Shown here piece after piece: positions 1,474 through 37,075 of a DNA stretch of 64,000 nucleotides. Each line of letters begins with the position of its first letter. Within the stretch, counting starts at the first letter, position 1. A program made the translations under genes and the position numbers. Below the pieces are notes generated by a model. The model had not been told where the DNA came from, did not search any database, and worked only from the letters and a program-made list of their open reading frames with translations. This DNA is from Schmidtea polychroa (lineage: Eukaryota): positions 68,386,001-68,450,000 of the forward strand of contig CM097888.1 of assembly GCA_044892525.1 (NCBI GenBank). The letters are read 5' to 3'.

Positions 1474-4400
1474 ATGATTGAAATTCCAGCACCACTTTCT
1501 CCGCTTGATGCCAAGTATGATTTCAAATTTTTAATTTTACTTAACATATATTTAGTTCATTTGCTTATTTTACATTTAAAGATAGACTTCCAGTCATTTT
1601 AGCAAGAATTGTCGATTCTCTTTATCGAAATAAAAAATTAATAACAGACGAATTAGGAGAAGTAAAAATTTTCTTTTATATACATTTAATCAACTTATGC
1701 ATAGGATAAAATTGATTGTTTAAAATATATTACGGCTGAAATGTCTCGACTGAGACACGAATTAACAACCGACAAAGCTCTAACTTTTTTTGATGGCAAC
1801 ATTTTTGGAGATGAGCAAAACTGGAATGATGCTATTATTGAAGAAAGAACTAGGTTGATCAAATCCAGAATTTCTGATAACGAAATTACTTGGTACAAAT
1901 GCTCATTTTTATTCGCTGAATGCTACATGTACCGTCGAATTTATGATTCGGTTTTAAAAAGGTAAATACTCAGTTGATTATTATTAAACCCATAAATGCA
2001 TTTTTAAGTTTATCATTAAAATTTTAATATGAAAATGATCCATTATTTTTTAATTTATATTTCTCATTTATTTATAATGATGAAAGTGTAGATAAATATT
2101 ATTGTTAGTGTTTTAATGCCAAATCCTATTTGAAACTCTTAAAAACAACTTCAGATTATATAGCATCACAAATGATGTGTTCGAAACATTGACAAATTTT
2201 AATTTAATATGATTTTTTTCTTTAATTAAATTTATATTTTTTTATTATTCCACTAGATTCCAATTATTTTTAGAATGAGTAATAATAATAATAATAACAA
2301 TAAAATAATAATGAATAATAACATTTAATATTAATAAACATTAAATTATCAGTATTATATTTTATTTATAAAACATTTACGTGGAATATAATTGGTGTTA
2401 TTAGATTATTTAGATTAATTATTCGTTATATTTTAACTTTGTTATAATTGACTATTTATGTTGACGATTTCATTTTGTAATTCAAAAAATATTGATAGTT
2501 TAATTATTTTGTGGTTAATGCGTATATTGTTAAATATGAGCCATATGCTGCATGGAAATCCTAATATTTATAATAATCTAATATATAAAGATGAAAGTTT
2601 GTTTGTTTGTTTGTTACCCATAAAATTCCCCACCGCTGGACCTAGGCTGCTGAAATTTTGTATGTGATCCTCATTTGACTCAGGATAAGTCATAGGCTAT
2701 GTTTCAACCCCAGGTGACCACCCACCCCTAGGGTACCCTAACCCTACTCAGGGCAACCTTGATTTCCTACAGTAGATATCCCCAGTAGATACGCATTAAC
2801 ATTTTTCAAATTTTTAAGGTGCTATTATAATTAGTTTTAAATTCCACCTATACATTGCACTACTGAAAATGGCATCAGAAGTAGGCTTCCCATCGTAAAA
2901 TTTGGTCCCCAAAAGCAAATTCCGAAATTTTTTAATTAAATTTTAATGTATTTTTTAAATGAATTAATTAAAATAAATTTCTTTATTTTGAATCTGTGTA
3001 CAATTTTTTTAATTGTGCAACGCCGGGTACCCCAGCTAGTTAATAATATTGGATCCATGGGGCTCATTAATGTACCTATATAAAAATAGATAAAAATTTA
3101 TTATTTGCAAAAGTTAACTAATTAAATAATAATTTTCATAGTACAAGAAAACAGTTTTTACCCTGAAAAAGAATAACAAAGTTATGCCGTTTTATTTGGG
3201 TTCAATTAATATAAAATTCTCCTTTTCTTTCAATCATTTTTACAATTGTACTGATCAGAATTATGAAGTATAAATAAGCGAAACAATCCGCTGTAATAGA
3301 AGCCAGAATCCACTTCAATCAAATTTTGGGACTTTGGAAAGACATAAATTTTATTATGATATTAATGATGTGCATATTCTATGATGAACTTTTTTTTATC
3401 GAAAACACTTATTTCATTAGAGTAAATATGGTAGGAATTTTCAAATGTTTCCAAATGTATCCAACTCATAATAAATGAAGTTTGAGTTTTTAATGACTGT
3501 CTTGTAGGAAAATACTGATACAAAAGGGTGTACGTTTGCTAAAGTATGTAAAAATAGAACACATAAAAGAAATGATTGAACTACGTTTTAATTAAAAACT
3601 TCAACTATAATATATAGTCTTATATTATAGAAACATTCAAACTTACATTGCTATTTTAATGAACAAAATACTTTATTATAAAAATAGAAAGGGGATGGGA
3701 AAATGTTATAATTTTATTCACGAAAATTATTAAACAAAAAGATGACGGATACAAATTTTGAATATAATTCTCAGTTTTTTGGAAAAGGATATTATCATTT
3801 AATCTTAATTAACAAAAATGAAAAATAATAAATTTTATTGATAAGTTTTAAAAATATGATTTCATGATAGAATTTCAGAAAGTGTTAAAATCAGATTAAT
3901 AAAAGTCATGGAGACGAGTTATCGAAAAACTCTGAATTCTATAATTTATAAATATAAAAATTTTGACGATATCCATAAGACAGGACAATTGGCAGAAAAC
4001 AATAATTTCACCAATAATCAAATAAATTATTGTACTATGTCAAGAAAAATTTTCACGCAAGAAAATATTGCAAAAAATAGATTAATGGTGGCTAATTTGT
4101 TATATAAAATATAATAATAGTTTACAATTATTTATTTTTATCTCCCATCGATAAATTGATTGTTTTCACTATTAATTGCAAAATCAGTAGACATCTGATT
4201 TTTTAAAAAAAAATAATTAATTATTTTCTTATTTCTAAAATATTCCTTCAGTGGAATTCCTGGAATCGATCAATTTTCGTTTGAGAAGGAAGAACTCTTA
4301 CAAAAAGCAATGAAAAATCAACAATTTTTGACAAAATATTTAATCAATATTTGGTCAACTCTTCCTAATTGTAACAGAGCTCTTCTGCTATCTTATTTCG

Positions 4401-7400
4401 AAGTTATTGTGAAGGTTTGCGAATTTTTTATTTAGATAAATTCAATTTAATTATAGGCTTTTTAATTTTTATCAAATTTTTTTTTACATTTTTCTTATAT
4501 TTAAAAAAAATATATAATTGAATCAGAGAAAAAATATTTAGGCCTATTTTAAAATTCTTTAGTTTATTTGATATTATATAAATCCTACTTTATAGCCTGA
4601 AAAGAAATGAAGATAAAAATAATTGAAAATGAAAATATGTTATCGATGACAAAAAGTCAAAGATTTTTAAAAATATAACTTAATAAACTCAATTTTTTAC
4701 AGAACTAAATAAAAATAAATTAACTCTGTCATCTAAAATAAATTATTAATTTCTTAAATATATTTTTTCAAGAAATATAATTATAAAAAAATTTGGAGTT
4801 ATTGAGCAATTATTGATTTTTATTGATAGGTGATTGCACACACTCCATATCAGTTATTCTAATAAAAACTTTACAATATATTGATTTTCTTTCTTAACAT
4901 TTAATTTATATTGCTACCAAGAAACTATCATTTTCTATATTGAATTATTGTTGCAAAAAGTTAAAAAAATTTAATGATTTTGAATTATAATTATACCACA
5001 AAATTAATATGCTACAATAATATTACAAAGTATATAGCAACCCAAAAGTTAGAACAGCAGTTCTATAATTGAATTTTTTGATTAATTATTTGATGAAATA
5101 TCGGTCCTATAATCTTTACTTTACTTTACACTTATTTTGATTCACTAATGTAATTTCTCGTTTAATTACTTGAAAATCTTTAGTTTTGATAATTCCAATC
5201 ACAATTTATCGGCTTCTTAATTCTCTCATTAATTTGTTCAAATATTTTCTGAAATGTTCTCCAATTTCTCTTTTGCAAATAAACGAAATGTTCGCCTCAA
5301 ATTACTTCTAGTTCTATATATTTATTTTTGTCACTAACTTTGCAATATATATTATCTTATATTTCTCCTTATCGTTGGAATTTATCTATTTTTATCGCAA
5401 CTCCATAATTTCAGTTATTTCTTCCGTATCTTTTCGTTATGTTTGGTTAATTTATCATTTTTTTCCGTTTAACCTGGGAAATTTTTTTACTAGGAGATTA
5501 TTAAATTAGTAAATTGATTATTAAATTAATAAAACATTACGGTAAATTATAAAAATAGAAAAATAGAAATTAATATAGAAATTTGTTATTTATTCGTATT
5601 AACAGACAACAATTAGCAAAATGGCTTTTTAATGTACTTAAAGAATGTATTTGTCAAGTCTAATAGGTGTGTTTCAGATATCGGTAATATACAAAAATAA
5701 TCAAAAATAAAAACACTTAGCATATAAAAACTTCATAAGTTCTTTCATCCATAGTGGATTTAGATATTTTATCATCTGCTAAACATTTTGCTTTGACTTC
5801 GTTGATTAATTTACACTTAAAATTTAGAATAACTTTTTGAAAGCCAGTTCAAAGTAACTAAATAGAAATATTCATTTTTATGTGAATGTCAATCTTTCAG
5901 ATTCTTGATGCAAAATATTTTTAAATTTTCACGAGACCCACTCAATATTGGCCTTTGAGATCCCCAGCTTTATAAGAAGCTTTACTTATAATCTTTGGAC
6001 TTCACATAGTTCTCTTTTAGAATAATTGGTTATTTAACGAGAAACCGAATAAGAAACTGATGAAAATAAAACTTGTAATTCATTATCTGATATTATTGTT
6101 GTAAGAAATTTGTACGTGCTCGAGGTATTATCACCTAGTTTCTTTAGACAGCAATACTTCTGAATAATGTTAATTGAAATCTCATTTGTGAATGGTGAAA
6201 TGAAAATAAACTGTTATTCTTGTTTGACCTTTTCTTTACAAAATTGTTTCTTATCTCTTTTTTTTGTTTTTCAACTCAATTTTAATAATTCTGCTTTTAA
6301 TTTATTCTTCAGATTTCTATCGATTTTTTTGATTTTTCTCTCGTTTGTTGAAAAATTTGATGGTTTCTTGATAGTAGCATAAATTAAATGATAAACCTTT
6401 ACTTCAAAATATTTACATGACCTGGATATAAAGTCCTTAGACTATTACATAAACGGTACTGGAAAAAAACTTTTATTTATATTTGTTTAAACGCAAAGAT
6501 TCATTTTTTTCTAAGCATCCGCCTGCTAAGCATCCGCCTGCTAAGCATCCGCCAGCTCATAGATTTACCATTAAAATAAAACATTTTCAAAATAAAAGCC
6601 ATCCTTTTCATTGAAGAAATTTTGCACTAGTCTATACTCATTGGACTGAATTCATTGCCCTCGTAAATTTTTCTTCAGGTAATTAAATAAGAAAAAATCG
6701 GTATAATATGCAAATTGGTGCGTTGTCATGCAAGAGATATCTTAATTCCTCGGTTTTCCTCATAACTTTTTCACATCACTAACCAGTGTACAATAGTGGT
6801 GAAAGTCGATGATTCTTAGAGTAAAGTCGATTTTTGATCATTCCAAGCATAGACACACTAATAGTGAGACATTTTAGATGAGATGTCCCCGAAGGAAGAA
6901 TTTTTGGTGGCTTTATTCCTGGAAACACAAATTCACTAGATTCACGATTACTGTATAGAACAGTGGTTCTCAAACTTTTTTTATCACGACCCAAATTTTT
7001 GACATTTCATGCCAAAAATTTTATTGCGACCCACATGACAAAGATTAAATAAATTTAAAAGGCTTAAACTTCCAAAATTTATATTTGTAGATCTTTCCAT
7101 AAGTCATCGCGACCCACCAAAAATTCTTTCGCGACCCATAGTTTGAGAAACACTGGTATAGAACAACGGTGGGCAAATGCGGCTCTTAGATATAAATATA
7201 AATATAAATATAAAATGCGGCTCTATACTATAGAACATAAAGACTCAATGGCGTCTCGTCCGTTATAATATCCTTCAAAAAATTCGGTCCAAGAGGGTCA
7301 ACTTTTCTTGATATACTTGCATTCACTTTTCTCGCATCTTTGCTGTCAAGAAAATTGGGATGAATCGGCTGGTTTCGATGACTTCTAGCAGGTTCTGCAC

Positions 7401-9160
7401 AGGTTTCTGCCTTGCTTACATTAAGTGTAGTTGAGAGTTTCACAATAATATTCAATTTTTCGAATTTCTTCAATCTATTGTGGTCGTTCACTACTTTTTT
7501 CAAAAAAACACATTGTTCCTACCAGGGGAAAACTCTAACCCATTTATAAATAGTGGCTTGCATGGTGCTTCATTTACATATTCTTCGTGCAGCTGATAAA
7601 TTATGACCTTATTTTCTGTCTTTCTCAAAAGAAATAAAATCTGATAACGCTGCAAAATTCAACTTGCTAGTACATTTTTTAACAACACACCGTAAACAAT
7701 GTCAATAGACATACACTAACTTAAACAAATTTAATAATGTTCATTGTTTTGTATCTGAAATTTTATAGATTTATTAATTTCATTTCTGTACGAATCTAAG
7801 GACTTTTATCCATACCGTCTATCACAGTGATTCTCAATTAATATAAAAGCGCCAAACACCATTCACATGATTTTTTTTGCGGGAACACTAAAATAAATAC
7901 TTTCCCACAATGAGTAACCAATTACAAATTACTATAAATCTGTCGTAAACTTAAACAATGCCTTCTTATAAGCAAAGAAAATACCACGCGCAGCAATAAC
8001 AAGTAATAAAAACACTTTTATATTTATATATCTGTGTAACAGCTTTCTTATTAAATCATCTTATAAAAAAATTAATTTAGGTTTTTGATGATATGTATTT
8101 TAAATGCAAATTTAAAGATAAAATGTCATTTTTTTCGCAGAACACGGGTTGAGAATCACTGGTCTATCATATGAAAATTATTTTTATGATTTATTATTTT
8201 ATAATCGAAAAATGTCCATATAATAAAAATTTTACAACAAAGGCTTTTTTATCATTTACTTGTTTATAGTTTGTTATACTATTAGCCATAGTATTAGCGT
8301 AACAGTCACTTGTTCCATATAAGGACAAAAAACTATAAAAGATTTTACATACTACATAAATATTACACTGTACTCTCTAGATGTCTCTATGGGCTAATGA
8401 GGTTGATTTATCCCTATCCATCAACGATGAGGAATCAAAATTAAAATTGGACAATCCTGAGAAAATTATTGAAGACAATAATAATAAATTACTAATTGAT
8501 GATTATAGGGATGTATTTGGGTTGCTTTTTGACAAGTCTACTACCAAACAGGAAGAGGTTATTGTCAGTATCTTTGTTGACAATAGTGGCAGTGAATTGC
8601 TGGCTGATTTACATTTTGTTGAATTTCTTCTTGCTTCTCGTCTGGCTAATAAAGTTATTATTTACACTAAATCGATGCCATGGTACATTTCTGATGTAAC
8701 AGAGCGGGATTTTCAATCGACATTGAACAGTTTGTGTAACTCAAATGAAACCTCTTGTCAATGGCTCGGCAAACAGATATATTCGAGAATTTTCGAAGAT
8801 TGCAATTTATCGGTTCGATCACATCACTTTCTCACTCTTCCTTGCCCGTTCCATAAATTGAAGATCTTATATCCCGATTTTTATCACGAGCTTTCAAATA
8901 CGACTCTTGCCGTTTTTAAAGGAGATTTGAATTATCGGAAACTAGTTAGTGATCTTCATTGGCCGGTTGTTAATACCTCATTTTATGACAGTCTTCAAGG
9001 ATTTAATCCTACTACAATTGTAGCATTGCGGGTTTTGAAATGCAATGTCCAAGTTGGTTTGTCAAATGAGATTTTATCCAGAGTTGAAAAAGAACATCCC
9101 GATGATTGGATGACATCATCGAGATATGGTGTCATACAGTCATGCTTTGTCAAAGAATGA
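1474..9160 (+). CDS. ARMT1: Damage-control phosphatase / acidic-residue methyltransferase ARMT1 (DUF89), spliced host gene
   Basis: Exons 1474-1514, 1556-1661, 1705-1961, 4252-4414 and 8381-9160, all with GT-AG introns and consistent phases, total 1347 nt = 448 aa + stop. ARMT1-family motifs: SFAYFTFKDRLP, LRHELTTDK, FAECYMYRRI, SLWANEVDLSL, DNSGSEL, PWYISDV, FKGDLNYRKL. Confidence 0.9.
2577..3039 (+). mobile_element. Non-autonomous Helitron-like element in ARMT1 intron 3
   Basis: Starts TC after an A (a|tctaatatataaagatgaaagtttgtttg) and ends CTAG before a T (gcaacgccgggtaccccagctag|t). GC-rich palindromic subterminus, no TSD: the Helitron signature. Confidence 0.65.
6511..6553. repeat. 15-bp tandem repeat, ~3 copies
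   Basis: ctaagcatccgcctg at 6511 and 6526, partial copy at 6541. Confidence 0.85.
6961..7155. mobile_element. hAT (Charlie-type) MITE
   Basis: TIRs cagtggttctcaaac / gtttgagaaacactg (14/15 match); 8-bp TSD GTATAGAA at 6953-6960 and 7156-7163. Confidence 0.9.
7228..7503 (-). pseudogene. Degenerate mariner/Tc1-like transposase fragment
   Basis: NFLKDIITDETPLSLY resembles the mariner FL.RIVTGDETW..Y motif; the fragment is short and internally deleted. Confidence 0.4.
7825..8161. mobile_element. hAT MITE
   Basis: Perfect 13-bp TIRs cagtgattctcaa / ttgagaatcactg; 8-bp TSD GTCTATCA at 7817-7824 and 8162-8169. Confidence 0.9.
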
Positions 9161-10665: not shown

Positions 10666-11048
10666 TTATAAATTTTTGTTTTCTAGTTGATCTTCACGAT
10701 CATTTGTTGATGGATCTAATGTTAAATGTTCTGGCGGGTCACTTTCGGTAATTGAAGTTTCGTTAATTTCAATGGCACTAATGTTATTAGTAGAATTGAG
10801 ATTTTGTTCATTTGGAAGCGATTCTGAGTTTGTAATATCGGTTTTCTCTTTAACTGGTGGCGGTTTTCGCAAGTCTGACACTGTTGTTATTAACAGTTCT
10901 TTACTCTTACTGATATCCAGCTTGTCTTCGAGTAATAGGGAACTATTAGTAATTAAGGCTAGTATTGAAGAAACTTCATTTTTGGGGTAAATCTCATGTA
11001 ATAAGGCATTAATTTGACTGTCAATAAAGGATTCATCAATGACCATTT
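10666..11048 (-). CDS. Possible exon of an unidentified host gene next to the retroelement insertion
   Basis: 126-codon S/T/E/N-rich open frame preceded on the minus strand by an acceptor-like attttattttag. No recognisable family, and flanking exons were not resolved. Confidence 0.3.
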
Positions 11049-11599
11049 CTAAAATAAAATATAAAGTTTTATGATAAAAATTCCCTAATTCAATTTTAAA
11101 ATATTGCTAGTTGAATTACTATAGGTGTTGATCTTAAGCATCAAAAAAAAAGATATTCCACCTATTAGTATTACCTTTGCATTAAATAAGATTAATATAT
11201 CCTTTAATATTAATTTTTTAATCAATAGTGTTTTTTCATTTAATTTCATATAATTTTTTTTTAATTCTAATGTTGGGCTGAGTCGAAAATTTAATCGTTG
11301 AAAAATAAGAAAGTAGGGAAGTAGAACATTAAGAAAAATAAAAATAAAATAAATAAAATCAGAAATAAAATAGAATAAGATATAAGGAAAATAATAATTA
11401 AGACATAAGAATTAAAACAAAAAAATAAAATTAAGAAAAGATTAAAATAGAACAAGTTGACAAATAAATAAAGAGGAATTCAAGAAATAATAAGGAAATT
11501 AAGGAAATAAATAGAAAAACATATTAAAAATAAAGAAAATAAGGAAAAAACAACCTAAAAACAAGAAAATTATATTAAATTAATAGAAATAAGCGGTAC

Positions 11600-11741
11600 T
11601 CAACTCTGATTGGTCCGCACAAATAAGAATTTGATATATATACAACTACCAAAAACATTAAATTTACTGTTAACCCCGAGCATTTCATAGGTAAGAAAGA
11701 ATGTTTACTGTTTTGACTGTTAACCCCGAGCATTTCATAGG
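11600..11741 (+). promoter_or_regulatory. Candidate LTR promoter region with 26-bp direct repeat
   Basis: Reverse CCAAT (gattgg) near 11610, TATA-like gatatatatac near 11633, repeat actgttaaccccgagcatttcatagg at 11666-11691 and 11716-11741, donor-like ag|gtaaga at 11691. Function is inferred. Confidence 0.4.
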
Positions 11742-13789
11742 ATCGACACTACTAGCCAAGCAACCGTCATTCAGAAAACTCCACAACTATTCAAAACCAG
11801 TTCAGAGACCGAAATACCATTCATCACAATAATCGACATCCAACGGACCACCATTAGAACTATTTGGAACGAACAACATTGAATTTTGACTCAGCCTAAC
11901 AATAGTAAGGGGTATTTCATTTGTTTATAGATTTATTTAAGTATTTGCAAAGCTAATAATAATGTTAAATATTAACGATTAAACATTTTAGTTAACTCTC
12001 TTCATTTGATTCTCCATTTTAATAACTTTAACGTATTGATGGAATTTGTATTATTTAAGTATTTCAGAATCAATAAAATATTTTTATCCAGATGTCCGTA
12101 TTTTATTTGAATTAAAGATTTTATGAATTTTCATTTAACGAGTAACGTGGAGTTGAGATACTCCATGTCATGGTATGAGGTGCCTTCGGGAGCTCAGCCG
12201 GTGGACATGGAGTATTTCAATCGCGCAGCTAGATTGGGCCGAAATGTGAAGGCTTCTTCACGGGTCCTATCGCTGAAGATGCGACTAAATTATCACAATG
12301 GGGTATGGATAAAAAATAACCGGTAGACAATGATTTCACAAAGATAGTCATACGAATGAAGGGATTTTCAAGGATTTGCACAGTGATTGAGGGCGTCGCA
12401 TTCTTCTTTCGTCAAGTCGTTTTCGTAAGTCTTACCCCTATTGAAAAAAGAGATCCAGACCACGATTTAGTGAACTTCGTCAAAAATAACAACATCTCAT
12501 AGTACGCTTCATCTGGAAACATGGTTTTATCAAATTAATTGCGACAACGTCTATTTGCCGGACTCAGTAGAACTAAATTCGTATGAAATTCCATTATCAT
12601 AGACCCAATGTCATCTAACCTGTCCAGATTGTATGTCAGGTTACGAAAGTATTCTAAAAACTTTAACTAACTCGAAACTATAAAATGCGAGATTCTACGA
12701 AAACCTCTCTAGTATTATAATCAGAAAGTTTTTATAGACTTAGTTATTTCAAAAATTATAACCAGGTAAAATATCACCAAATTTAATTAATAACATTTAT
12801 TTCTACAATAAGAGCCAGGTCATCACTGTATATATCCAAATTATTGAACCTGAGAGAAAAGGACAGGTTTCATCGAGACGGCATTACATCTGAATAGGAA
12901 AATCCGAGTAGAATGACGAGAGTAGTAATATGCTTCAGTATTTGGTAGAATTATTCCCTCGACGATCACTGAAAAGATCCAATAAATTTCCAAACGATGG
13001 TGATCATTCACACAAGTTGATAAGGGTAAAATTCCGCGATGAGAACTGGCGGTAGCATAAATCATAACTCAAATAAATCACTGTGCAGAGAAAATCATAC
13101 GACAGCAGGATCGATAAAATCACCGTGAAAATGGCATACACCAAGTGAGTGAGATAAGATAGTAGCCATACACGAATCCATGTGGTGAGAGCACAGAATA
13201 TCAGACTAGCATACATAGTAGTCGCGACACGTGACATTCACAATAGGTCGATAATGTAATCAACCAGTCGACAGCAGTATCCGTAAATTTGGATATGTTA
13301 TGACCGATGGGATTTTCCATGAGGGTGTTAAAGTAATGGCTGATGTAAACTCATCACATATTTTCAGACCAATGGTAGACAACATTGATAATCACATTCA
13401 CTACCGAATTAAAAGTGCACTTCCAATAACAAATTTCGAATCAAAAATACGTTGAGAGCGATAGTAATTTGTTTTTAATAAATTAAAATAGATAACATAT
13501 AGCAAGGTTTGGTCGCATACTATAATGTCCCTCTACTAAAGCATTATTATATTATTTCACCAATATTATATTTACACCCTATCAATTATTACGTCCCTCA
13601 TGCATACAGTTAGATCAATAGATAGTCAAAGTTAATAACATGCGTCAAGCCGATGGCATTTGGTTAAATAAACCGTTTTAACAACTAAGATCCGTAGTAA
13701 AACCGGATTGTAGAATAAGTTTTCCTTCTTTTCGACGGTCAAGTATCCACGAATGGACGCGGGTCGTATCTAATTTATTCTAAAATCGT

Positions 13790-14578
13790 ATGTTCTCCAT
13801 TTCATTAGTATTATTTATAGCAAGCATGCTACCAACCACTAAATCAGCATTACGGCCGTGCTTCTCGTGCGCGGATAAAAATACGGTGATAAAGGACCTA
13901 CAAACTCAGATTGGACGTTACAAGAGGAAGATAGACGAGCTGGAAGGGACATGGTTTAGTCCCGCTCGGATGAAAGAGATCCAAAAGAAGCTCGATCGTA
14001 GCGAGCATTGCCGGGACGCGCTAATATCTGAGAGCCGTGCCCAAAGAAGTCTAATCAGAGAACAATCCGAGGCACTGCATAAGGTTTACGTGCAGGCGGC
14101 TACAACCCGAAAAATCGTGCAGATTCCCATCCGAGAGGCCGATGACATCTTTCCGCCTCATCACAACCTTTCCTCGAATCCATCTCCACCGTTCAAGAGA
14201 CCGTGCCGAGACTGCGTCGAAACCGAATGGTCCCCCAAGCGTCCAGATGTTGTCATCACGGGTACCAGTAAGCCCCCCACTGCTAGTCCATCTGTATCAG
14301 TCACCCTTCTGCAAGTGGCATCTTCAAGCAAACCCAAGCGCAAACAACTCTCTCGTGCAGAGCGCAAGAAGAGACAGCGCGAGCGCGCTACTGCAAAGCC
14401 AAACATCCCATCAATAGAGGACTCAACCAACGGTGGCAACTCTCACGTGTCCATCGACCTAACAACGGGACCCTCAGCGCGAATCATATCAGCCGCTGGC
14501 GTAAGGTGGGAAGAGAACGCTTCCGAGTTTTTCAACCTCGACGAATTATTCGCCGACACTGAATGGGAGAAACAATAA
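13790..14578 (+). CDS. LTR-encoded 262-aa protein of unknown function (coiled coil, two CxxC, basic NLS-like tract, acidic-aromatic tail)
   Basis: Long ORF in an otherwise AT-rich LTR, identical in both LTRs. Alternative start ATG 13826 follows tttatag; AATAAA overlaps the stop and recurs at 14702. Confidence 0.65.
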   Translation: MFSISLVLFIASMLPTTKSALRPCFSCADKNTVIKDLQTQIGRYKRKIDELEGTWFSPARMKEIQKKLDRSEHCRDALISESRAQRSLIREQSEALHKVYVQAATTRKIVQIPIREADDIFPPHHNLSSNPSPPFKRPCRDCVETEWSPKRPDVVITGTSKPPTASPSVSVTLLQVASSSKPKRKQLSRAERKKRQRERATAKPNIPSIEDSTNGGNSHVSIDLTTGPSARIISAAGVRWEENASEFFNLDELFADTEWEKQ

Positions 14579-15119
14579 AACCCCAGTGGCGGTCAGGATG
14601 AGGAACAAGGATCCGATCTATGTTGATTATGATGTTTTCTCTTCTTTCGACAAACATTAGTAAAATGTACAGCTGAATCCTTGTGTCATAACGTTGAAAT
14701 TAATAAATCTTGTTGTCTTACACGTTTTCGTTCATGAATAATTAGACTTTAATTAAGTGGGTTGAGTAGAGAACCCGCAAGATCTAGTGAGAATTTCCCA
14801 ATTTGCATTCAGCGAATCCTGATAGGTGGTTGTGTAAGGAAATGGACGTAAGCCCTTCTATCGGCAGTCGTGAATGGGAAGTCGAGGCCTCAGCAAGGAG
14901 TAGTTTTAAGGCAGAAGCTCACCTGCTTGCTGGCGTCTCGCCTGCATAGTGCAGTACCAACGTGAAGTGATTCACGGGCACTATGTTGGAAGAAAGTTAT
15001 GTGGGGTTTCACTCCAGGTTGACAAATCGGTGGCACCTTTTATTCGAGATGGACAATCAACCCTTAGACCCGCCAACATGGTAGAATGGTCAGCCGAGGT
15101 GTAACCCCAACATGATTTT

Positions 15120-15137
15120 TGGGGGCTCAGCCGGGAT
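15120..15137 (+). promoter_or_regulatory. Primer-binding site, tRNA-Pro-like
   Basis: TGGGGGCTCAGCCGGGAT matches the known tRNA-Pro PBS TGGGGGCTCGTCCGGGAT at 16/18; it starts 7 nt after the LTR end. Confidence 0.75.
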
Positions 15138-15454
15138 CTACAGTCGATCGAAACTTCTATTAACGAATGCGAAATTCACCGGGATTTTCATACAAAATTA
15201 AAGGGATTTATCACATCGATTTTCTATTTTCAACCGACCATTGCTTGACGAATGCAAAGTGACTATTGATTATTAAATTATATTAGGAACTAAGTAGAGA
15301 AAATCAAAATGTAGATAATAGAAAAATTAAGGATATATATAAATAAATGAGATAAAGTAGTCAAATTAAATAATTAACAATGGTTAAAGAAACCAATTAA
15401 CGAATTAACTATTAATTTACTACATATTATTAAAACATTACTTTTCCAACAGCT

Positions 15455-15940
15455 ATGACAGAATTCGCGAACCAAATGCAACAACTGCTCAAGTTTATCG
15501 ATATAGAAAACGACTCCCTAACAACACTGACGCATAAAAGAGAAAAAATCAACGCGATATTACTGCAAGCAATCGGACAAACACCAGTCGTACCTAATCA
15601 TATGATATTAGCCACAGGCCTAAGTCGCCCAGATGGAAAAATAAACCCCGAAACCGTATATCAGTGGTATCAAGAGAGATTGAACCACCCAACATTAAAT
15701 CTAGATTATCAGCGTCTAAAAGACTCACTAAATACAATACCAGATGCAATCGAACAAAAAATACAGGAAAAAGTTAACCAATTACGAACTTGTATAGCCT
15801 GCAAACTCCGTCCTATTCGCGTATTACTCTTGCCGTGTGGACACCTCAGTCACTGTGAAGAGTGTGTAAAAGACCTAAAAAGATGCACGATGTGCAAATA
15901 TGAAATAAAAGAGACCCATATGGTCTATTACGGCGAATGA
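15455..15940 (+). CDS. IAP-type C-terminal RING-finger protein (putative E3 ligase), no BIR domain seen
   Basis: CIAC-x9-LPCGH-x3-CEEC-x6-CTMC followed by IKETHMVYY at the C-terminus, the IAP/XIAP-like RING-HC pattern. Acceptor-like ttttccaacag ends 2 nt before the ATG. Confidence 0.85.
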   Translation: MTEFANQMQQLLKFIDIENDSLTTLTHKREKINAILLQAIGQTPVVPNHMILATGLSRPDGKINPETVYQWYQERLNHPTLNLDYQRLKDSLNTIPDAIEQKIQEKVNQLRTCIACKLRPIRVLLLPCGHLSHCEECVKDLKRCTMCKYEIKETHMVYYGE

Positions 15941-16517
15941 AACGGCCGGCGATGTAACAGCAAGTATACGAGGTTTGAACAAGAATGCATGAAATTGTTG
16001 AAGTAACACGTACTGTTAATGATTCAATCTTTATGTTTATGATAAATAAATTCGTCTTTAAAAAGTTTTGATGATTAGGACTAATAAAATTTGCATGCCG
16101 AATGAATATTTGCGTGTTTGTTTTGTTTTATTCCTTTTTTTTTTGGAATCAAATGAAGAGAGGGTTGAATAACGTGGAATTAGTCCCAATATAGACTGCA
16201 GGGGTACAAACCGAGCCACCTTCGGGCGGTACGTCTTATTGCAAGAACCCGTTGGGAGGGGATAACTGATCAACCCAAGTAAGAAGCGTAGGGCGGGGTA
16301 CCATCGCATATGATGAGAAGTTTTTGCGACATGACTGATCACCATGCCAAGGTAGAAATGGATCATCGCGATCGTCGTGCGTTTTGAGCAAGGGGGGAAA
16401 GGGGAAACACTCCCAAGCGGTAAAGATTAAGTCGACAAATTAAAAGTAGACAGAGAAAATGGTAAACTAGAGTAAAAGAAGAAAAGAGAAATAGAAGCAT
16501 GCAGAGCGAGGAATATT

Positions 16518-17071
16518 GAAGATTGAGCTGTTGAATAGTGCCAGCCAGTCGTAAGATCGAGTTGTTGAATAGTCCAACCGATCAGAAGGAAGAAGATTGA
16601 GCTGTTGAATAGTGCCAGCCAGTCGTAAGGTCGAGTTGTGAAAAGTCCAACCGATCAGGAAGGAGGAAGATTGAGCTGTTGAATAGTGCCAGCCAGTCGT
16701 AAGGTCGAGTTGTGAAAAGTCCAACCGATCAGGAAGGAGGAAGATTGAGCTGTTGAATAATGCCAGCCAGTCGTAAGGTCGAGTTGTGAAAAATCCAACC
16801 GATCAGAAAGAAGAAGATTGAGCTGTTGAATAGTGCCAGCCAGTCGTAAGGTCGAGTTGTGAAAAGTCCAACCGATCAGGAAGGAGGAAGATTGAGCTGT
16901 TGAATAGTGCCAGCCAGTCGTAAGGTCGAGTTGTTGAATAGTCCAACCGATCAGAAGGAAGAAGATTGAGCTGTTGAATAGTGCTAGCCAGTCGTAAGAT
17001 CGAGTTGTTGAATAGTCTAACCGATCAGAAGGAAGAAGATTGAGCTGTTGAATAGTGCCAGCCAGTCGTAA
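16518..17071 (+). repeat. Tandem array of ~7.5 x 74-bp units in the retroelement leader
   Basis: Units begin gaagattgagctgttgaatagt at 16518, 16592, 16666, 16740, 16813, 16887, 16961 and 17035 (partial). Each unit contains two related sub-repeats sharing G(C/T)TGTTGAATAGT. Confidence 0.95.
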
Positions 17072-18380
17072 AGGCCTAGAAAAGCGAGAGATAGCAGTTA
17101 AGCTACAATGAGATAATATTTAAATTACTAGTGATATGGAATATTAAAGCTAGCTAGAACAAATTGAATGTAATTTTGAAAATTCGAGTTTAGAGAGGAA
17201 ATAAACGAGCTCGTGGAAAAGAAAATAAGATTATAATGAAAAAGGAAAGGGAAGAAGGAAACGAATTAAAGAGATAATAGAAAATAAAGAATAGATGAAA
17301 TGATGATAATGAGTAAAGAGGAAAGTAACTAACTAATTAAAGGGATCCCAGTGAAGTAGAGAAACTCTACGGAATTTTTTTTTTTGGGTAAACCGGGAAA
17401 ATGTATTTTTACCGGTTCCAGAGTAGAACCGAGTGGGATAATAGTAAACACGAAAAGTAAAACAGCGACAACAGCGCAAAGGAATAAGAAAACGAAGGGG
17501 GGTAATAAGCAGAGACTGACAACGACCTATTTTTACTATAATTGATAACGAATAGATAATTATTACGACTTTATAGATAATTGTTACTACCCCATATAGA
17601 TAATTTAAAATCGACGGAAAATACGGGCTGATGGGATATTATAACCCGCAGAAAGGATTTCACAAAAAGATAGGGGAAGCACAAACAGAAACCTAAAAGG
17701 CGTCTGTTTTTGAATGTTGTAGAAAGAATGATGAAGTCGTGTAAGCAAATGCAACACGAGATCATTTTTTCATTTTAGATATCAAGCCAATCCAGCCAAC
17801 CAAGACAATCCAGAACCTGCACAAAAGGAATTCGAAGAAATCGACAATCAACCAAGGATAAATCCATTCAGAACCCGCACCGAGAGACACAGCAACCGGA
17901 AGACTCCAGAACGGAAGAAGTATTAGCAGCCATCTGCCAAGGATTAGTAAATCTCCTCAGGATCTCAGTAGCAGATTCATACAGAATATTTATCGAAGGA
18001 AACACAATCAGAACCGAACGCGTCCAATTCAATAGCCGCTAATTACCAAGAAGCGTAAGAAAGGAATCACGGATAAACCCAATCTTAGATCTTCTAGTAA
18101 GCCAGGAGACGTATTATTTTCAGGAGACGAATTACAACAACTCAAAAGAGGACGATCCATTAAACATCAAAGAGGAATATCACAAGGATCCAGAAGAACC
18201 AATCAAGTACCCATATTTGACCAAGAAAATCTCGGATATACCCCTAGTCGATCTCGAAGTAGAGAAAGTCTGTCCGATATCACTAATAGTTTAGCAACGT
18301 CAACCGAGGAGTTATCAGCCCAAAGTTTAGTCACATCGTTAGACAATTTAAAAGAAACAGACGAACCTAGAACACCAATC

Positions 18381-19286
18381 ATGACGAATGTCGTAAAAAC
18401 CGACGAGTATAAAGAGAAGTTCAGAGGAGAACCGTTCAACGGAAACGCAAACAAGCTAGCATCGTTCATAACTAATTTTGAAGTTTATATCACTGTGTGT
18501 GGATGGACACCCGAAGCAATTAGTAAAAGGATGCCGTTGTTTTTGTGCGATAGTGCATTAGAGGTATATTTAGAAGCTAAAGAGAGAGACACGAAATTAG
18601 AAAAGTGGGAAGATATTAAAACATTCCTGAAGAAAACCTTCGGAGCCAGTAAGCCAATCAACCAGGCGTTGGGCGAACTAGCAAATAGGAAACAAAGAGC
18701 AAACGAATCGATAACATTATATGCCAGTGAATTGCGGAGATTAGCGAAGAAAGCAATGAATGGAAAATTACCCGAAGAAAATCTGATCGGTTATTTCATA
18801 GAGGGATTACGCCGAGAAGAAGTAAGAGCCTCAGTAGGTTGTCAAATGTGCAAAACATTAGAGGAAGCCATAGATTGGGCTACAAGATGCGAGCTCCACC
18901 TTCCAGCTCAAATGAATATTATGCAAGAGGAGGGAAGGATAGCGACAGCAATAGCGAAAGCGGATAACGGAGATAACAACAATCAAGAACCGAAAATGAA
19001 TCAATTTATACCAGGAGCGCACCAAATTTTCAAACCACCACAAGGACGATCAAACGGGAATAATGGTAATCGTAACAACCCGAATAATGAGAACAATTTC
19101 AATAATCGGCGAAATATGAACGATAACAAGCAGTGCCGAACATGCGGTAAACCAGGACACTGGGACAGAGATTGTTATAGAAATTCAAATTGTAATCGTT
19201 GCGGACGGCGTGGACATACCGAAAATGTATGCCAATTGCGAGGCTGTTTTAACTGTGGTCAGCCAGGTCACATCTCCAGAGATTGC
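18381..19286 (+). other. Gag capsid-like domain and three CCHC zinc knuckles
   Basis: Retrotransposon-gag pattern (WEDIKTFLKKTF, RKQRANESITLYASELRRLA, FIEGL); knuckles CRTCGKPGHWDRDC, CNRCGRRGHTENVC and CFNCGQPGHISRDC at 19134-19286. Confidence 0.92.
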
Positions 19287-22200
19287 CGAGAAAGGGGCCA
19301 ACAACAACGACCACCACAGCGAAATAATAATTATATAGCGAATCCGCAACGACAAAGTAACCCTAACGAAGGAAAACAAATGAACGTTATGCAGGAAATT
19401 TCGCAGATGAAACAGATGATGCAACAAATGATGAGACCAAGACAAGAATCAGCACCACAACAAACCCAGAATATACGTATGATGAGGAGTACCGAAAATC
19501 TCAACAATTATGAAGTGCATCAACATGTACAAGAATGGCAAAGGCTACAGGCCGAGGAAGAGAGGATAAAACAAGAACGCAACCAACAACGACAAGAACA
19601 ACCATTGCGAATAAATATGATGAAGTTAGTAAAAGACATGAAGAGCCAGTATTGCTACAATTACGGGAAAAGCCCAAGGGTAGTACCCATGACTGAACCA
19701 GAAAAGGTAAAAGAAATAACAACGGAAATGAAAACAGAGAATTCAACCACGATTTTAAAAGGAAACCAGAGAATTCAGAAAATATTCTGGAAAAAGATAA
19801 AAGATAAAATCGAAAAAGAACATAATAAAGCGAAAGCCGAGACAGAAGATGAAAATAACAAGAGCAAGGAACAAACCAGTCAACTAAACCACCAAATGCT
19901 ACAGGAATTAGAATCAGAAGAAACAACGATATTCGAAAGAAAGAAACTAAAGAGAGTACCAAGGATGAGAAACTTGCAAATCAATATGATGAAAAGGACA
20001 AAAGATGTAGCATCGTCAGACGAGGAAGAAGACTATGTAAGTAGTTTGGGTGGAGAAATACTACAGCTGAATGAAATAAGCGAACCTCCAAAAGGGGAAA
20101 TCAAAGAGGAAGAAGGCGAAAGCGAGATAACCAGCGAAAGTGAAGACGAGGATATCGAAATAAAGTTGAGAAAAGGGAAGGAGGAAGCGATAAAACAAGT
20201 AGCGGAAATACTCCCAGTAGTAGTGAGGAACCAAGAGTTCATTGACGTAATACCATTCAGGCGATTCGTGCAAAAAGTGATGAAATTGGAAAGAAACGAG
20301 AAAGATTTAATACCAAACGAGGAAAAATCAATTATAAAAAATTATATGGAAAAAATGAAGCAGGCCGATACCACGCGGTATGTAATAAAAATCGGAACGA
20401 GTAGAGGACTTGAAAGAATGTGGATAAAAAATACAGTCACCGACGAACTTTTCGATTGGATACGAGAGCATTTGGGAAGTTCGAGAAAGAAAGAATATCT
20501 GTATCAATACCAAGGAGAACAGATCAAACCAGATATGCACTTAGTAGATGCACTAATATGGCCAGGAGAAACGCAAATACTGAAGTTGCATAAAGAAAAA
20601 CAACCAGCCAACCTTTACGATTGGGCTAAAGATGCCAAGGCAGAATATGATTTTAATATCAAATTGAAATTAGAACAAATAAAACAATGTACTCTGAGAC
20701 GAAACCTGGATAAGCTGATCAAACAAATTCAAGAACAAGTAGAAGACAACTGGGATTTACTCATCACCAGACGAGCCCCAGCCATGTACGAACTAATGAG
20801 CCGGTTGCGAGATACAGAAATGCTCCGAATGAGTGATTGGAGAACCATAAATTTGATCCACAAATATGGAAGGTTAAAAGAAACCCAGCCACAGAGGTTG
20901 GAAATAACCATATGGTTACCGAACGAAGAAAAACGACGAATAAAAATGAGCAATCAGAGTACAGTAGATGACTTGGTATCAAAAATAAACCAAGAGATAA
21001 CGGAAAAGGTACGTAGCGAAAGTAGTGATGGTATGGTGGATGATGTAGTCATGATGTACGATAAGATAATATTACGAGCGGAGGACGACACCTCGTTAAG
21101 CGAAATGGGTATGTGGGACAATCACCAGATAATCAGGATAGTACCAATGGATGAATTTCGAACAAGAGATGTAACCTATCAAAAAGAAATACGAGACCGG
21201 ATGAAAACGTTATATCAAAAATCTACGGAAATAATTAAAATCCACCAACAATGGTTAAAAGAAAAAGAACTACAAGGAAAAATCACGAAATTAAGCACCA
21301 GATCCTGCAGACGAACCCCATGGGAAAGAGTGTGGAATGCAGAAAGTAAGGAATGGGAAATCCGGAAAGGAACCTTCGTGGAAACAGACATTGGTGAGAC
21401 AGAAAGTGAATCGGAGGAAGAAGAAGAGGAACCTCCAAAATATGAAGAGGAAGCAAGGGAACAGACATCAGATGACGAAGGCGAGACGGATGTCACATCA
21501 GAAAGCGAAAATGAAGCGAGACATATTCATGCAATGAGGAAAAAGGAACGTGAATATGCTGATATGGACGGCGAGGAAGCGACGGAAGCAAGAGAACGAG
21601 AAGAGAAAGAAAGATATAAACAATTAGGCGATATCTTAGCAATGGGAGCGAAAAATCAAAGACGCCAAGTAGTAGCGTTGGCTAACATCATCTTAAAGAC
21701 ATCAGAGGACATCCACAATCTGAGAGGAATGGCAAAGGCAATAGAGGAATACCGGCAATATAATGAATGGTATCCAGAACAGCTAGAACAAATTATTCGA
21801 AAATGGAGAAATCAGGAATGGGCACAAGACACCCAGGAGAGGTATCACATCCGAATCAAGTATCCAGACAAGAGCATCGAGGAACTAGAGGTGCATCCAA
21901 CAACAAAAATTAGAGAATTAAAAAAGAAATTAGCATATGAAACTCCATTCCATCTGCAACTGTTCGGAAAATCACTAGACGATAATGCAGACGTCGGGAT
22001 AACCCCCATGAGATTGGAAGAGACAAATGTATTAACAATGGCAGAAACGTTGGGAAAACCGTTAAAAAGGAAAAGTAAAATTATTAAACCAACACAAGGC
22101 AGTTTGAGTACTCCAAGTCCGAACAAAGCACCAAGTAAATCTAATGAAACTGAAGAAGTTGAAGAGATAATCCTGGAAGATAGTGACGATGAACCAGGAG

Positions 22201-25200
22201 AAAGATCACCGCTATTAGTGAGATGGCCGACAGGAGCCGAAATGTGGACTAATAACCAGCCATCAACGAGTTATCAACAACCAACGAAACTGAACATCGA
22301 AGAAATCATCGACAATACTACGGAAACCGAAACGGATGAACAATTCCAGAAGCAAAGAGAACCAACGAAAGTAACACCAGAAAGTCAAACCGACAAAATA
22401 ATAGACGAATGGAATGAGTGGCTAAGAAATAACGATAGCTCATTACCCAGAACGGATAACGAAAGAAATCCGAATTACGAAAATACCAGAGAAGCAGGAA
22501 CGATGATGGAAAAACGGGCAAAAGGAAGACCCAAGAAACAAGGAGAAAAGTCTGAGTTCAAAACCAAAGAACAATTAAAGCAAGAACAAGGGCAAGTTCG
22601 ATTAGAAAAATTGGATAAAATAGTATGGGATCTAAAGGAAGCCCAACCAACGATCGAAAGAGGAGAAAAATGGATACGAGAATTGTTAAAAGATATGTTA
22701 ATAATAACAAACCCACAACTTAGACGTTTGTGGCAACGGAAAGTAGCCAGTACGGAAGCTAGACAATTATGGCACACCATTTCGGGGATAATCCCAAAGT
22801 TAATCAAAGAGAAAACGAAAACCACCAAAACGGATTGGGACGAAACAAAGAGAGTGATTGAGCAGCTCACGACAAATGCAAATGATGACGAGCATCACCT
22901 AGTGGTAATCACTTATTTGATGTATAATTTGATGGGACTAGCTGCGAGGAAAATACCAAATAAACAGTTTGCAAATCATGTAGAAATGACCGTTTCAATC
23001 ATAGAGAATACTATTGAACCACACATTATTCGTGCAGGAGGATGGAAAAGACTGATACAAGCGCCACGGAAAAATGAGCAAGAAAGGTCGATGCAAGTTA
23101 GATTGAAAAAACTATTAAATGAACTAGAATGGGAACTACCGATGAAAGATCCCGCAAGCAGAAAAGCATCAATAAATTCGTTAATGATGACTATGATGAT
23201 ATGGATGTTGTGCACAAGTGGAGCAACAGGTTTCACCATCTACGATTGTGATAACATGATAATGAGAGATAAATACTCATTGAGAGACATAGAAGAATGC
23301 AGACAAGCCTCACCCAACAAATTGGACATCGTGAGAACAAAAGTTACTTACCATGTATATCAAGAATCAGATTTCATCAGAACGCAAGCAAGGGAATGCG
23401 TAGTATCAAAAAAGGTACTCGCATATTACTGTGGACAATATTCGTATTCGACTCTTATACTACCCGGTCTGGATAAAGAAATCGTATCAATACAACGAGA
23501 GGATTGTAAAGAGCTATTTAGAACCGGAGCGCTAAAAATGCATAACGGAGTGACAATTCACGGACAAACTGGAATGATTAAAACCGAAAGTGTTTACGTA
23601 TCCGGAAAAGTAAAATCATCAGATGGGTCATGTAACGGAGGTACGTATACGATCCGAGGCGAGGTAATATCGGGAGTTGTAGTGATCGAGTCTTACACGG
23701 TCGAATTAAAAGAATACGAAGCGCAATTTGACGCAAATAATTACCAAATGAAGACCAACCCAACGTGTAGAGCTACAGAAAACGTATGCAGGACAGGAGT
23801 ATCAACTATAATCTATGAAGCTAATACCCAAAAATGCCGACTCCAACTGTTAAAAAGTGCTTTGTTCAATGAAGTAAAAGGAGAAATATATGAGAACGAG
23901 AACGACGAGGATGGAAACGACAGAGTGAGAATGCGAAATGGAAAACCAATGCCACCATCTCCCAGAGAAAAGAGACTTTCAACGCAGAAGACACCAACAG
24001 CATTAATCACAGACGATCCAGATCTAGGTATGAGATTTATCAAAGAGAAAGAAACCACCAAATGTGACAGTATAGTATATAAAACCAATTACGCAGGTAT
24101 CTATATGTCGAGACAAATAATCGATAGAGCAGTGGGAAAGATAGCAACGGAGGACGTAAAACTATACTTATATGCAAATAATAAAATGGATTTTCTATTT
24201 CATCGCGGACAAACGACCTTGCAAAAAGTATATTACGATCTAATACAAAACGATTGTTCATTGAATAAAGAAATATTGAAAACAAAGCTAGCTATTGCGA
24301 TAACGCACCCAGATAACACGATGCCATCACTCCCATTTCCAGATGGACACTTTGGTAGAATGGTAGGAGAAGTGATGTACACATACCAGTGTACCAAGAC
24401 GTATGCACGAATGCCAGAAAAATCCATACTACCCGAAAAGAGATGTGCAAATGAATTAGAAATCCGTTATAAAGGACAAAATCGATTCGTCCAACCAGTC
24501 ACTAGAATTATGAATCCAGTGGGTTTCTACCCAAATCTCTTTAACTGTTCTAATGCATACGGACCTTTATATGAAAGGCCCGATGGGAAATGGATGATGT
24601 TACCGGGAAAAACCATATCCGAGGAGCCCAAGAAATTTGGATTAATAGAACTCGCCACAGAGCTGGATTTCAAACCTATAGACGTGTCAAACGGTGGTAT
24701 GTATTCCCCAGAAGATCTAGAAACAGCACGACTTAACGTACTCTTCCCAGCCAGACGAGAATCCATTTTGTCTAATATGGTAACAATAACTGGGGGCACA
24801 AACTATCAATCAGGCCCGAATTACGAGCTGCTATTATCGCCAGACCATTTTCAACAAGCTACGTCAAACATGATGAAAGCAATGTGGGGAAGATTCTTAG
24901 TTTTTGGAAAAATGATGGCCGGGATATTAGGGATCATACTCATAATTCAGATAGTCAGAGTAATACTAACACAAATGTTAGCTTGTTTCGATATATACAA
25001 GCGGGAAAAGAAAGTTAATTGGAAAATGATAGTAGGCTTCTTACCATTTTTAGCTAAGACCATGGTATTACATGGCCACTCAAAAGACATTCATCGGATA
25101 AAGCGATTGATTAAAATATTAACAAAGATTAAAGGAACCGACGAGGAAGTAGGCAGACGATTCCGGAAAGTAATGTACGATGAAGCAACAAGACGACAAT

Positions 25201-32394: not shown

Positions 32395-32754
32395 ATGGAT
32401 CAAGGAAATAACGAAATGAACCACAATACAGTAACTGAAGAATTATGGAAGCAACAATGTGCCGTATTAGCACAATTAGTGTCCAATTTGCAAGAACAAG
32501 GACTGACGATGCACAGAAACCTGATCGAGAGTATGAACAGAGGATTTAGTTATTTGAAGATAATTGAAGACCAGAGGTTAAAAATCGAACAAATGCAAAG
32601 AGAGATAGAGAGGATAACCCAATATAGCCGTCGACAGGAAATTGAAATAGACCGAATGAGGGAGGAAGCAGAACAGACAGAAATAGAAGACTGGTCGGAA
32701 TGGCTAATGAATAGAGAGGAGAGCGGGCACGAAGCCGACTCTTCCGAACCCTAA
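32395..32754 (+). CDS. Small coiled-coil accessory protein (~119 aa)
   Basis: First ATG at 32395 within the listed ORF; heptad-rich E/Q/R sequence with the same codon style as the rest of the element. Confidence 0.6.
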   Translation: MDQGNNEMNHNTVTEELWKQQCAVLAQLVSNLQEQGLTMHRNLIESMNRGFSYLKIIEDQRLKIEQMQREIERITQYSRRQEIEIDRMREEAEQTEIEDWSEWLMNREESGHEADSSEP

Positions 32755-32839
32755 ACCAAACCTAGCTTAAAATGTAAATAATTGTAAATAAAATATCGAA
32801 CCTGTATCGATAAGAACTATTTGTACATATAATTATAGA

Positions 32840-34228: not shown

Positions 34229-34366
34229 CCAATCGAATAATGTTGTATATAATAATCTGTATATATCGGTGTATATAACCAATAAAATATTATATAATAA
34301 TAGTATGAAAACCCTAAATACGAAAACCCAAAAATGATGCGAAAATTTCCCAAGAAACAGTAAATA

Positions 34367-35476: not shown

Positions 35477-35524
35477 GGGTGGATGAAAAGATGAAAAACT
35501 AAAAACCGGGACGTATATCCCAAA

Positions 35525-35525
<1 letters not shown>

Positions 35526-35555
<30 letters not shown>
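35526..35555 (+). repeat. A30 tract inside the element
   Basis: 30 consecutive A, 49 nt after the stop of ORF 34367-35476. Confidence 0.9.
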
Positions 35556-35557
<2 letters not shown>

Positions 35558-35613
35558 AAAGTATTGTAAAAGTATTCAAGGGACTGTAACCCAAACTATT
35601 AAATTTTATATCA

Positions 35614-36366: not shown

Positions 36367-36406
36367 ATTAAGGGTCATTAAAACCAATTGTAAATAAACA
36401 TAATGA

Positions 36407-37075
36407 ATGTATAATAGTATCATGCGAGGCGAGATGATGATAACAATGATGGTATTGATGATTCTGATGGAGAGCAAACAAATAGACGCCCAACCGAAAA
36501 TCGTACGAGATTACCGAAATCAAAATCAAGAACCTAAACAAGAATCCAGTCAATGCACATACCCGATGACCGTAAAAACCCATATCATCCAAACCATTCA
36601 ATCAACCCGATCACACATCAACAACATCCAAACAATGTGTAAAAAGAATCCCATTTGTAAAATGATAAACAAACAAATCCTCGAACAAATTCAACAATTC
36701 GACCAGTTGGAACAACAAATGCAACAAGAGAATTTTGGAAATCTGGTAGAAAAGCCAAAAATACCTCCCGAAATCAATAACGCCCATTATCTCATATATG
36801 TGGTGATCGCAGAAACCCTCCTCCTATGTCTACCAATATTCATGAAAATTTACGAAGTTCGAAATAGATGTAGAATCTCGACATCAATAAGAGTAACCTC
36901 GAACCAAAATCCTCAAGAAGTGCCCCTGACAAATCTTAACCCAACCCCATTCCGACCTCGAACCCCGAGTAATCAACCAATCCAGCCGAAATCTAATAGT
37001 CAGACCTATCTCAACATCAATACCCAAACCAACCAACAGCCGCCAGCAGAAGCATCAATGGTTAACAATTCATAA
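36407..37075 (+). CDS. Small type I membrane protein (signal peptide, Q-rich ectodomain, TM, P/N/Q-rich tail)
   Basis: MMITMMVLMILMESKQIDA signal-like segment; YLIYVVIAETLLLCLPIFM TM-like segment. Confidence 0.7.
   Translation: MYNSIMRGEMMITMMVLMILMESKQIDAQPKIVRDYRNQNQEPKQESSQCTYPMTVKTHIIQTIQSTRSHINNIQTMCKKNPICKMINKQILEQIQQFDQLEQQMQQENFGNLVEKPKIPPEINNAHYLIYVVIAETLLLCLPIFMKIYEVRNRCRISTSIRVTSNQNPQEVPLTNLNPTPFRPRTPSNQPIQPKSNSQTYLNINTQTNQQPPAEASMVNNS

Follow-up and report, generated by a model that had tools for sequence, protein, structure and literature searches.

The LTR gene and the element that carries it

The window, which is the whole stretch of 64,000 nucleotides of Schmidtea polychroa DNA analysed here, contains a single young copy of a giant retroelement of 29.9 kb (11271-41143; this and all features below lie on the plus strand). 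The element has two LTRs of 3842 bp (5' LTR at 11271-15112, 3' LTR at 37302-41143) with TG..CA ends and a 4-bp target duplication (CTAA), and the LTRs differ from each other by a single base, at 13450. Inside each LTR lies a gene for a protein of 250 aa, at 13826-14578 and, as a second copy, at 39857-40609, which is supported by its open frame, by selection and by homologues. The initial annotation had placed a 262-aa ORF in both LTRs. The open frames are there (13784-14578 and 39815-40609), but the true start is the ATG at 13826, as conservation among 41 copies (40 fetched and the window copy) begins at this codon and the sequence upstream of it differs between subfamilies. In other subfamilies the LTR alignment breaks between about 12278 and 13825 and resumes at the same ATG, and the start at 13790 was rejected because the extension is not shared among the 41 copies.

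The primer-binding site (15120-15137), which we take to be of the tRNA-Pro type, follows 7 nt beyond the LTR end, and bases 11275-11283 near the LTR start are complementary to part of it (15123-15131). Next come a RING-finger accessory ORF (15455-15940) with its own splice acceptor ahead and, between the RING gene and gag, a tandem array of repeats of about 74 bp (16492-17082). Ahead of the gag start, behind an acceptor at 17780, 600 nt (17781-18380) are free of ATG where 7.9 would be expected, and a 52-nt GT-AG skip was seen at 17947-17998 in X2, a read set of unspecified kind. The polyprotein (18381-32234, frame open from 18036, 4732 codons) contains gag, a BCL2-like region, a fusion glycoprotein, PR, RT, RH, IN and ankyrin. 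Its Pfam domains come in the order gag, PF24664, RVP, RVT_1, RNase H and integrase, with env in frame between gag and PR-RT-RH-IN; the BCL2 match is weak (E 0.04) and a BIR domain is absent from the Pfam matches listed. Five 3' accessory ORFs (32395-37075), including a RING-TRAF-MATH ORF (32840-34228), each have an acceptor-like AG just ahead of an ATG. A YAG within 12 nt of an ATG was found for the accessory ORFs at 15455, 32395, 32840, 34421, 35668 and 36422, several of them with an AATAAA about 25-55 nt upstream, and 50 nt past one accessory ORF there is a 30-nt poly(A) run (35526-35555), perhaps the remnant of a captured processed mRNA. The ORFs flanking the element are ARMT1-like (8381-9160), lactate/malate dehydrogenase-like (47117-48382) and a Spin-doc zinc finger/DUF4371 frame (50243-52147). 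Elsewhere in the genome, at G000:C2:177680106-177733279 and G000:C4:12790027-12813056, the LTR gene occurs three times at even spacing, as tandem elements sharing LTRs.

By its architecture the element matches the Burro-type Ty3/gypsy elements as they are described in the Burro section of PMC6431247, where Burro, or GYPSM1, are giant gypsy-like LTR retrotransposons of planarians. The assignment is made because the element is about 30 kb with long LTRs and has a single polyprotein with in-frame env and ankyrin, BCL2-like, TRAF-MATH and RING cargo. The description in that section agrees with the window element in the length of about 30 kb, in one polyprotein of about 4700 aa with gag, BCL2-like region, in-frame env, PR-RT-RH-IN and ankyrin, and in TRAF/MATH and RING cargo, accessory ORFs and tandem repeats; it differs in that TRAF lies here in a downstream accessory ORF. 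In a passage of PMC8532177, BURRO1 is described as highly abundant and active in planarians. The text of the Burro section of PMC6431247 names no LTR-internal gene, no leader and no splice map; an ORF in the LTR may be drawn in its Figure 2A or in Grohme et al. 2018. No description of a gene in the Burro LTR was among the listings of the open-access literature surveyed. The element class was already known, and the LTR gene is not described in the texts surveyed.

The protein begins with a CxxC (C12, C15), followed by helices at residues 15-40 and 46-98 with a GTWFSP hinge between them and by a disordered linker, and its C-terminal half has a basic helix at about 169-189 and an acidic tail with LDELF at 238-242. 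The PCFSC and PCRDC motifs, the basic tract and the acidic end were all present as first described. Both CxxC motifs are in the window protein, but the second (C127/C130) keeps only its first cysteine in the distant family of homologues, and it was rejected as a conserved zinc site due to this loss. The heptad count was unimpressive, with no more than 0.50 hydrophobic residues at the a and d positions. An AlphaFold2 model on 17 alignment rows gave the long helices and a basic helix at 177-189, with disorder elsewhere (mean pLDDT 61, pTM 0.26).

We found no homologue in a 5.8-billion set, either with the single protein or with the 17-row alignment at near and longer lengths; the single protein likewise had none in a set of 1.84 billion representatives. 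Pfam gave only matches below the cut-off, the best E against PDB sequences was 0.32, metagenome contigs held no homologue and no similarity to any host protein was found. Foldseek gave 0 matches in PDB and a best E of 0.25 among viral structures, both with low-confidence models (pLDDT 53 and 61), and the VIA fold comparison found generic long helices only (Z at most 6.0). In the searches made, the LTR-gene protein has no relative or fold beyond this genome.

Conservation and purifying selection

The LTR gene is under strong purifying selection. Over 66 pairs among 12 copies dN/dS was 0.06-0.32, and 0.06-0.17 where dS exceeded 0.3; it stayed at about 0.1 at dS up to 1.3, and the bootstrap upper bound was at most 0.20 in all four pairs tested. 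Four other frames gave 1.1-2.7. The antisense frame that shares third positions gave 0.14-0.22, but it has no ORF of 100 aa. The start, length and motifs of the gene persist even where synonymous sites are saturated. A disrupted ORF lacking a selection signal in related LTR families, which would have spoken against the gene, is the opposite of what was observed.

The genome search gave no internal stop in 148 of the best 150 matches, these being the best-scoring of 6971 candidates with 85-100% identity, and the intact fraction is therefore biased. A less biased sample was obtained through a primer-site pattern with 628 matches, from which 40 of the first 47 listed were taken and 7 already-known ones skipped. 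It consisted of 25 loci of short-LTR types with no ORF and 15 of long-LTR types. Among the latter 13 matched the ORF and 11 were open in full length (one with an altered tail), the others being shortened by a frameshift (two), carrying a deletion in the gene (one) or aligning only at the LTR end (one).

Homologues fall by tblastn at 82%, at 63-66% (middle group) and at 32-37% identity (distant family). The homologue ATG lies 1270-1317 nt before the LTR end, in the same place in the 32-38% and the 63-66% families, and the homologues in other LTR families are each behind a splice acceptor, the AG of which abuts the ATG in the most distant family. The basic tract is 97% identical in the near group and 88% in the middle group; the linker reaches 78% and 43% there. 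Conservation in the distant family is highest in the first CxxC region (98%, residues 10-19) and the hinge (72%), and the basic tract and tail, at 37% and 25% identity to the window protein, are below the N-terminal half. As patterns, the basic tract was matched in 17/17 aligned copies, as was a C-terminal hydrophobic-[DE]-x-hydrophobic-hydrophobic motif, and the tail has a net charge of -4 to -10 in 16/17. An older, decayed third lineage has a shorter, broken LTR homologue (HMM 33 bits, search space set to 1000), which retains the GTWFSP hinge and the basic tract just inside the LTR end, with the primer site following in one copy; no acidic tail was found in it. In this old lineage (L147, about 4100-5650; L130-L149) a small ORF ending in RKRGRPRK, a motif that we assume to be AT-hook-like, precedes the short homologue.

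A mosaic element (L075, L127-L129) was also observed. Of its 10 other regions tested, 8 have a dS of 0.10-0.58 to the window copy; one gene is at 1.19, while the LTR gene is far (dS saturated) and RING likewise (1.12), which points to an LTR from another lineage.

The initial annotation had proposed that even solo LTRs could express the gene. Eight of the fetched LTRs have a 4-bp duplication and lack a primer site, and are thus solo LTRs (L037 had been automatically labelled a 3' LTR, yet has the duplication). All eight TSD-flanked solo LTRs, a set chosen through the intact ORF, keep the ORF open together with the CCAAT box, donor, acceptor and AATAAA, and five fit the strict TATA/exon-1 pattern. 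Across the genome, exact LTR ends number 166 and those with a primer site 64, which gives an estimate of about 38 unpaired ends. Judged from sequence, the LTR holds a real and old orphan gene, under strong selection and placed downstream of a likely promoter.

A predicted transcription unit within the LTR

A likely promoter, with a reverse CCAAT box (11606-11613) and a TATA box (11635-11642), recurs in distant families and in short LTRs that have no ORF. The predicted exon 1 of 25 nt (11666-11690) begins 31 nt past the TATA box, at the putative transcription start, and is followed by a predicted GT-AG mini-intron of 50 nt (11691-11740), the last 25 nt of which (11716-11740) are a copy of exon 1. 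In eight of nine long-LTR copies such a unit, with its start 28-31 nt past TATA and AG-GT at its end, occurs again as the last part of a GT-AG intron of 45-50 nt; the repeat is exact over 25-28 nt in seven of them and interrupted by one indel in L079. The unit, which was duplicated in all long-LTR families seen, differs in sequence between families and matches within each, and from this we infer that the duplicated unit is exon 1. The ninth copy (L093) has a single unit, with the mini-intron absent exactly. Reverse transcription of an RNA spliced at the mini-intron, with strand transfer onto the second copy, would possibly equalise the repeats and rebuild the intron, and recombination between the repeats could alternatively account for the single unit in L093.

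The predicted leader exon 2 (11741-11904) is free of ATG and ends at a donor (11905) that is conserved also in the short LTRs. No ATG occurs in the leader, once spliced, of any of nine LTR types, where shuffling gives 2.0-3.2 expected in each (P 0.03-0.11 each), the types being related and the boundaries placed by eye. The predicted acceptor (13805-13820) is a T-rich tract with TAG, 5 nt ahead of the ATG. The donor-like sites at 11691 and 11905 and the acceptor before the ATG (13819-13820), as named at the outset, are present. There are four sequence types upstream of the ATG, each with a T-rich tract and YAG 5-10 nt before it; across the families tested the acceptor stays 0-10 nt from the ATG, while the flanking intron cannot be aligned between the four types.

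Two AATAAA signals had been suggested for the end of the RNA. The one at 14702-14707, about 876 nt past the ATG, has a GT/T-rich stretch after it; the near and middle families keep this signal at 860-886 nt past the ATG, and the distant family has only variant hexamers. The one at the stop codon (14574) is incidental and was rejected as a poly(A) signal since other copies end in TAG or TGA. A further AATAAA at 12072-12077, 167 nt past the donor, is a candidate end of R, a signal that is weak alone in AT-rich DNA; it equals the sole AATAAA after TATA in the short LTRs, which lies there 50-65 nt past the donor (19/19 matched). A donor upstream of the LTR poly(A) signal is also a feature of foamy viruses, according to PMC3694450, and both the window LTR and the short LTRs resemble them in having the donor ahead of a candidate LTR poly(A) signal. 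By homology with the short LTRs, the end of R would be near 12095, which would place the gene in a U5 of 3 kb; alternatively, a long R may end near 14720, with the gene in a 3-kb R. The LTR gene is likely to be in R/U5 either way, because the CCAAT-TATA pair, the duplicated exon 1, the ATG-free leader and the conserved donor are all upstream of it. A position in U3 was rejected, as CCAAT-TATA and the duplicated exon 1, with the start that they imply, lie 2.2 kb upstream of the ATG.

It is quite probable that transcription begins near 11666, that exons 11666-11690 and 11741-11904 form an ATG-free leader with donor 11905 joined to acceptor 13820, and that the RNA ends near 14720. Any LTR, whether 5', 3' or solo, would then by default make the product of the LTR gene early, because the acceptor of this gene is the first one and nothing beyond the LTR is needed. 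The earlier proposal of a self-contained LTR transcription unit agrees with this at the sequence level, as divergent families share the promoter, leader, donor, acceptor and poly(A) signal.

No spliced transcript or splice joint over the LTR gene was seen in the contigs of the read sets searched. In X6, which was only guessed to be RNA, one contig of 879 nt, from a diverged relative, starts at 13826 and rejoins at 14479, with 12646-13609 uncovered; it was rejected as evidence of splicing because the region also differs between subfamilies and another contig crosses the poly(A) region. X5 had one contig over 13650-14900, and X7 and X8 had none there. No genomic copy had exon 2 within 20 nt of the ORF start, as a spliced retro-copy would.

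Possible functions of the LTR gene

Our preferred explanation, which as a whole we hold tentatively and at somewhat less than even probability, is that the LTR gene is a selected gene of a Burro-type element, likely expressed from a short spliced RNA, the product of which is likely a nuclear trans-activator of the element. If the gene is expressed as described above, there is about an even chance that the protein works as follows. The CxxC and long helices are candidates for dimerisation, and the basic helix would bring the protein into the nucleus and bind nucleic acid. The tail, acidic and hydrophobic, is predicted to attract a co-activator and so to increase transcription or elongation along the 26-kb unit with its many genes, as Tas and Tat do in complex retroviruses. 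Foamy virus Tas and HIV-1 Tat are trans-activators, small accessory proteins with a basic tract and an acidic or hydrophobic region. The window protein is like them in its basic tract and acidic hydrophobic motif, which were found in 17/17 copies by pattern match only, but it has no homology to them and is encoded in the LTR instead of the internal 3' region. The initial annotation had read the protein as a nuclear trans-activator. These two motifs make the reading plausible; the searches made gave no supporting homologue, family or fold.

MMTV sag and HIV nef are U3 genes; they precede the main start site, and their expression comes chiefly from the 3' LTR. They are similar to the window gene in being accessory ORFs duplicated with the LTR. 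In contrast, the window gene is downstream of the putative start, in R/U5; its predicted leader, acceptor and poly(A) signal are contained in the LTR as well, and it has no sequence similarity to either.

Short-LTR elements may be informative about an action in trans. They are abundant elements of about 12 kb (L072, L076, L078 and others; internal parts L111-L123) with LTRs of 1.55-1.7 kb and an identical primer site, and in the stretches read from the four examined gag was present and pol was not found, so that they are likely non-autonomous partners. They keep the promoter and donor and lack the LTR gene, as expected for a trans-acting factor. However, the lack of this gene counts for little since these gag-only elements lack most other genes too. 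In addition, promoter type and ORF type are not co-inherited (L035, L046 group), and types that do not travel together give no sign of a matched activator-target pair.

A twin RNA hairpin (12146-12275, z -5.3) lies in the predicted intron and is kept in the short LTRs with no ORF. In 17 distinct copies 99.5% of cells pair and 7/47 pairs are changed on both sides, a two-sided count that was reached by 53/500 shuffles, and the covariation score was reached by 0/500, the structure being derived from the same alignment that was used for the test. In the distant family this position is taken by a long stem that is unrelated to the hairpin (z -3.0 to -6.2). Rfam gave no match over 11000-18100, and a hammerhead identity was dropped after this. 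The hairpin may be a target of the protein or a packaging signal. This raises the alternative, unlikely but deserving to be taken seriously, of a post-transcriptional factor like Rev, Rex or Rem, which would bind the intronic hairpin and let unspliced or read-through genomic RNA persist and exit the nucleus. The window gene is like these factors (PMC11569226) in its predicted arginine-rich helix, its predicted fully spliced mRNA and its structured intronic RNA element. The covarying hairpin is within the intron and would hence be on unspliced RNA only, the ORF-less elements keep it, and the distant family pairs a different basic tract with a different long stem at the same place, a pairing that is known from two classes only. 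A unit with many acceptors and poly(A) signals would also need such control. On the other hand, a leucine-rich export pattern conserved as in these factors is absent: in a scan by regular expressions for six NES classes, with atypical signals outside it, no class recurs at one position across 17 copies, and 6/17 copies have no match at all. Furthermore, the place just past a major donor is equally expected for a packaging signal that is read by Gag.

Another unlikely alternative is that the protein is a host-manipulating adaptor, a coiled coil working with the RING, TRAF and BCL2-like cargo of the element on ubiquitin, apoptosis or silencing. The N-terminal CxxC-helix region is the most conserved part in the distant family, and the rest of the cargo is related to ubiquitin and apoptosis. 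In the mosaic element divergence is shared by the LTR gene and the RING gene, but this follows from physical linkage alone. The conserved basic tract and acidic tail fit a nuclear regulator, and the searches made gave no similarity to a host protein.

Concerning expression, a YAG lies no more than 12 nt from each of the seven accessory starts, compared with 61 of 238 internal ATGs, where four of the seven were picked as second ATGs on account of that YAG. It may be that a single leader is spliced to many acceptors, or that the unit is operon-like. It is improbable, in our view, that the acceptors beside the ATGs instead take a host spliced leader by trans-splicing from an operon-like precursor. 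The AATAAA signals ahead of several accessory starts would suit such a precursor, and SL trans-splicing and operons with about 100-bp spacing are described for the flatworm Macrostomum in a part of PMC8629364; yet a conserved donor and an ATG-free leader lie upstream in cis, and no loose end was seen at the acceptor among the matches listed.

That the gene is a passenger, a chance open frame or a decayed captured fragment doubled only via LTR duplication, is extremely improbable and already refuted by the selection reported above and the persistence of start, length and motifs, even though GC-richer DNA (0.49 in the frame, about 0.3 around it) holds long frames more readily and no transcript was seen in the read sets searched.

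Returning to the trans-activator, a broader scenario can be drawn that is conceivable but rather doubtful. An invertebrate Ty3/gypsy element would have independently evolved a circuit of the complex-retrovirus type, with a master regulator in R/U5, so that every LTR, including dozens of solo ones, would be an early gene switching on the 26-kb unit and gag-only parasites in trans, and with the exon-1 copy rebuilding the intron at each reverse transcription. The duplicated exon 1 offers a testable prediction for the transcription start. It is usual to regard LTRs as non-coding, and a solo LTR as a dead promoter. In this element the LTR carries a strongly selected gene, and solo LTRs would be dispersed gene copies able to be expressed, each with a predicted leader and poly(A) signal. 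In case the product is an activator or an export factor, retrovirus-style trans-regulation would be present in a Ty3/gypsy element, and this would offer a way to study how nine genes are expressed from a 30-kb element in planarians.
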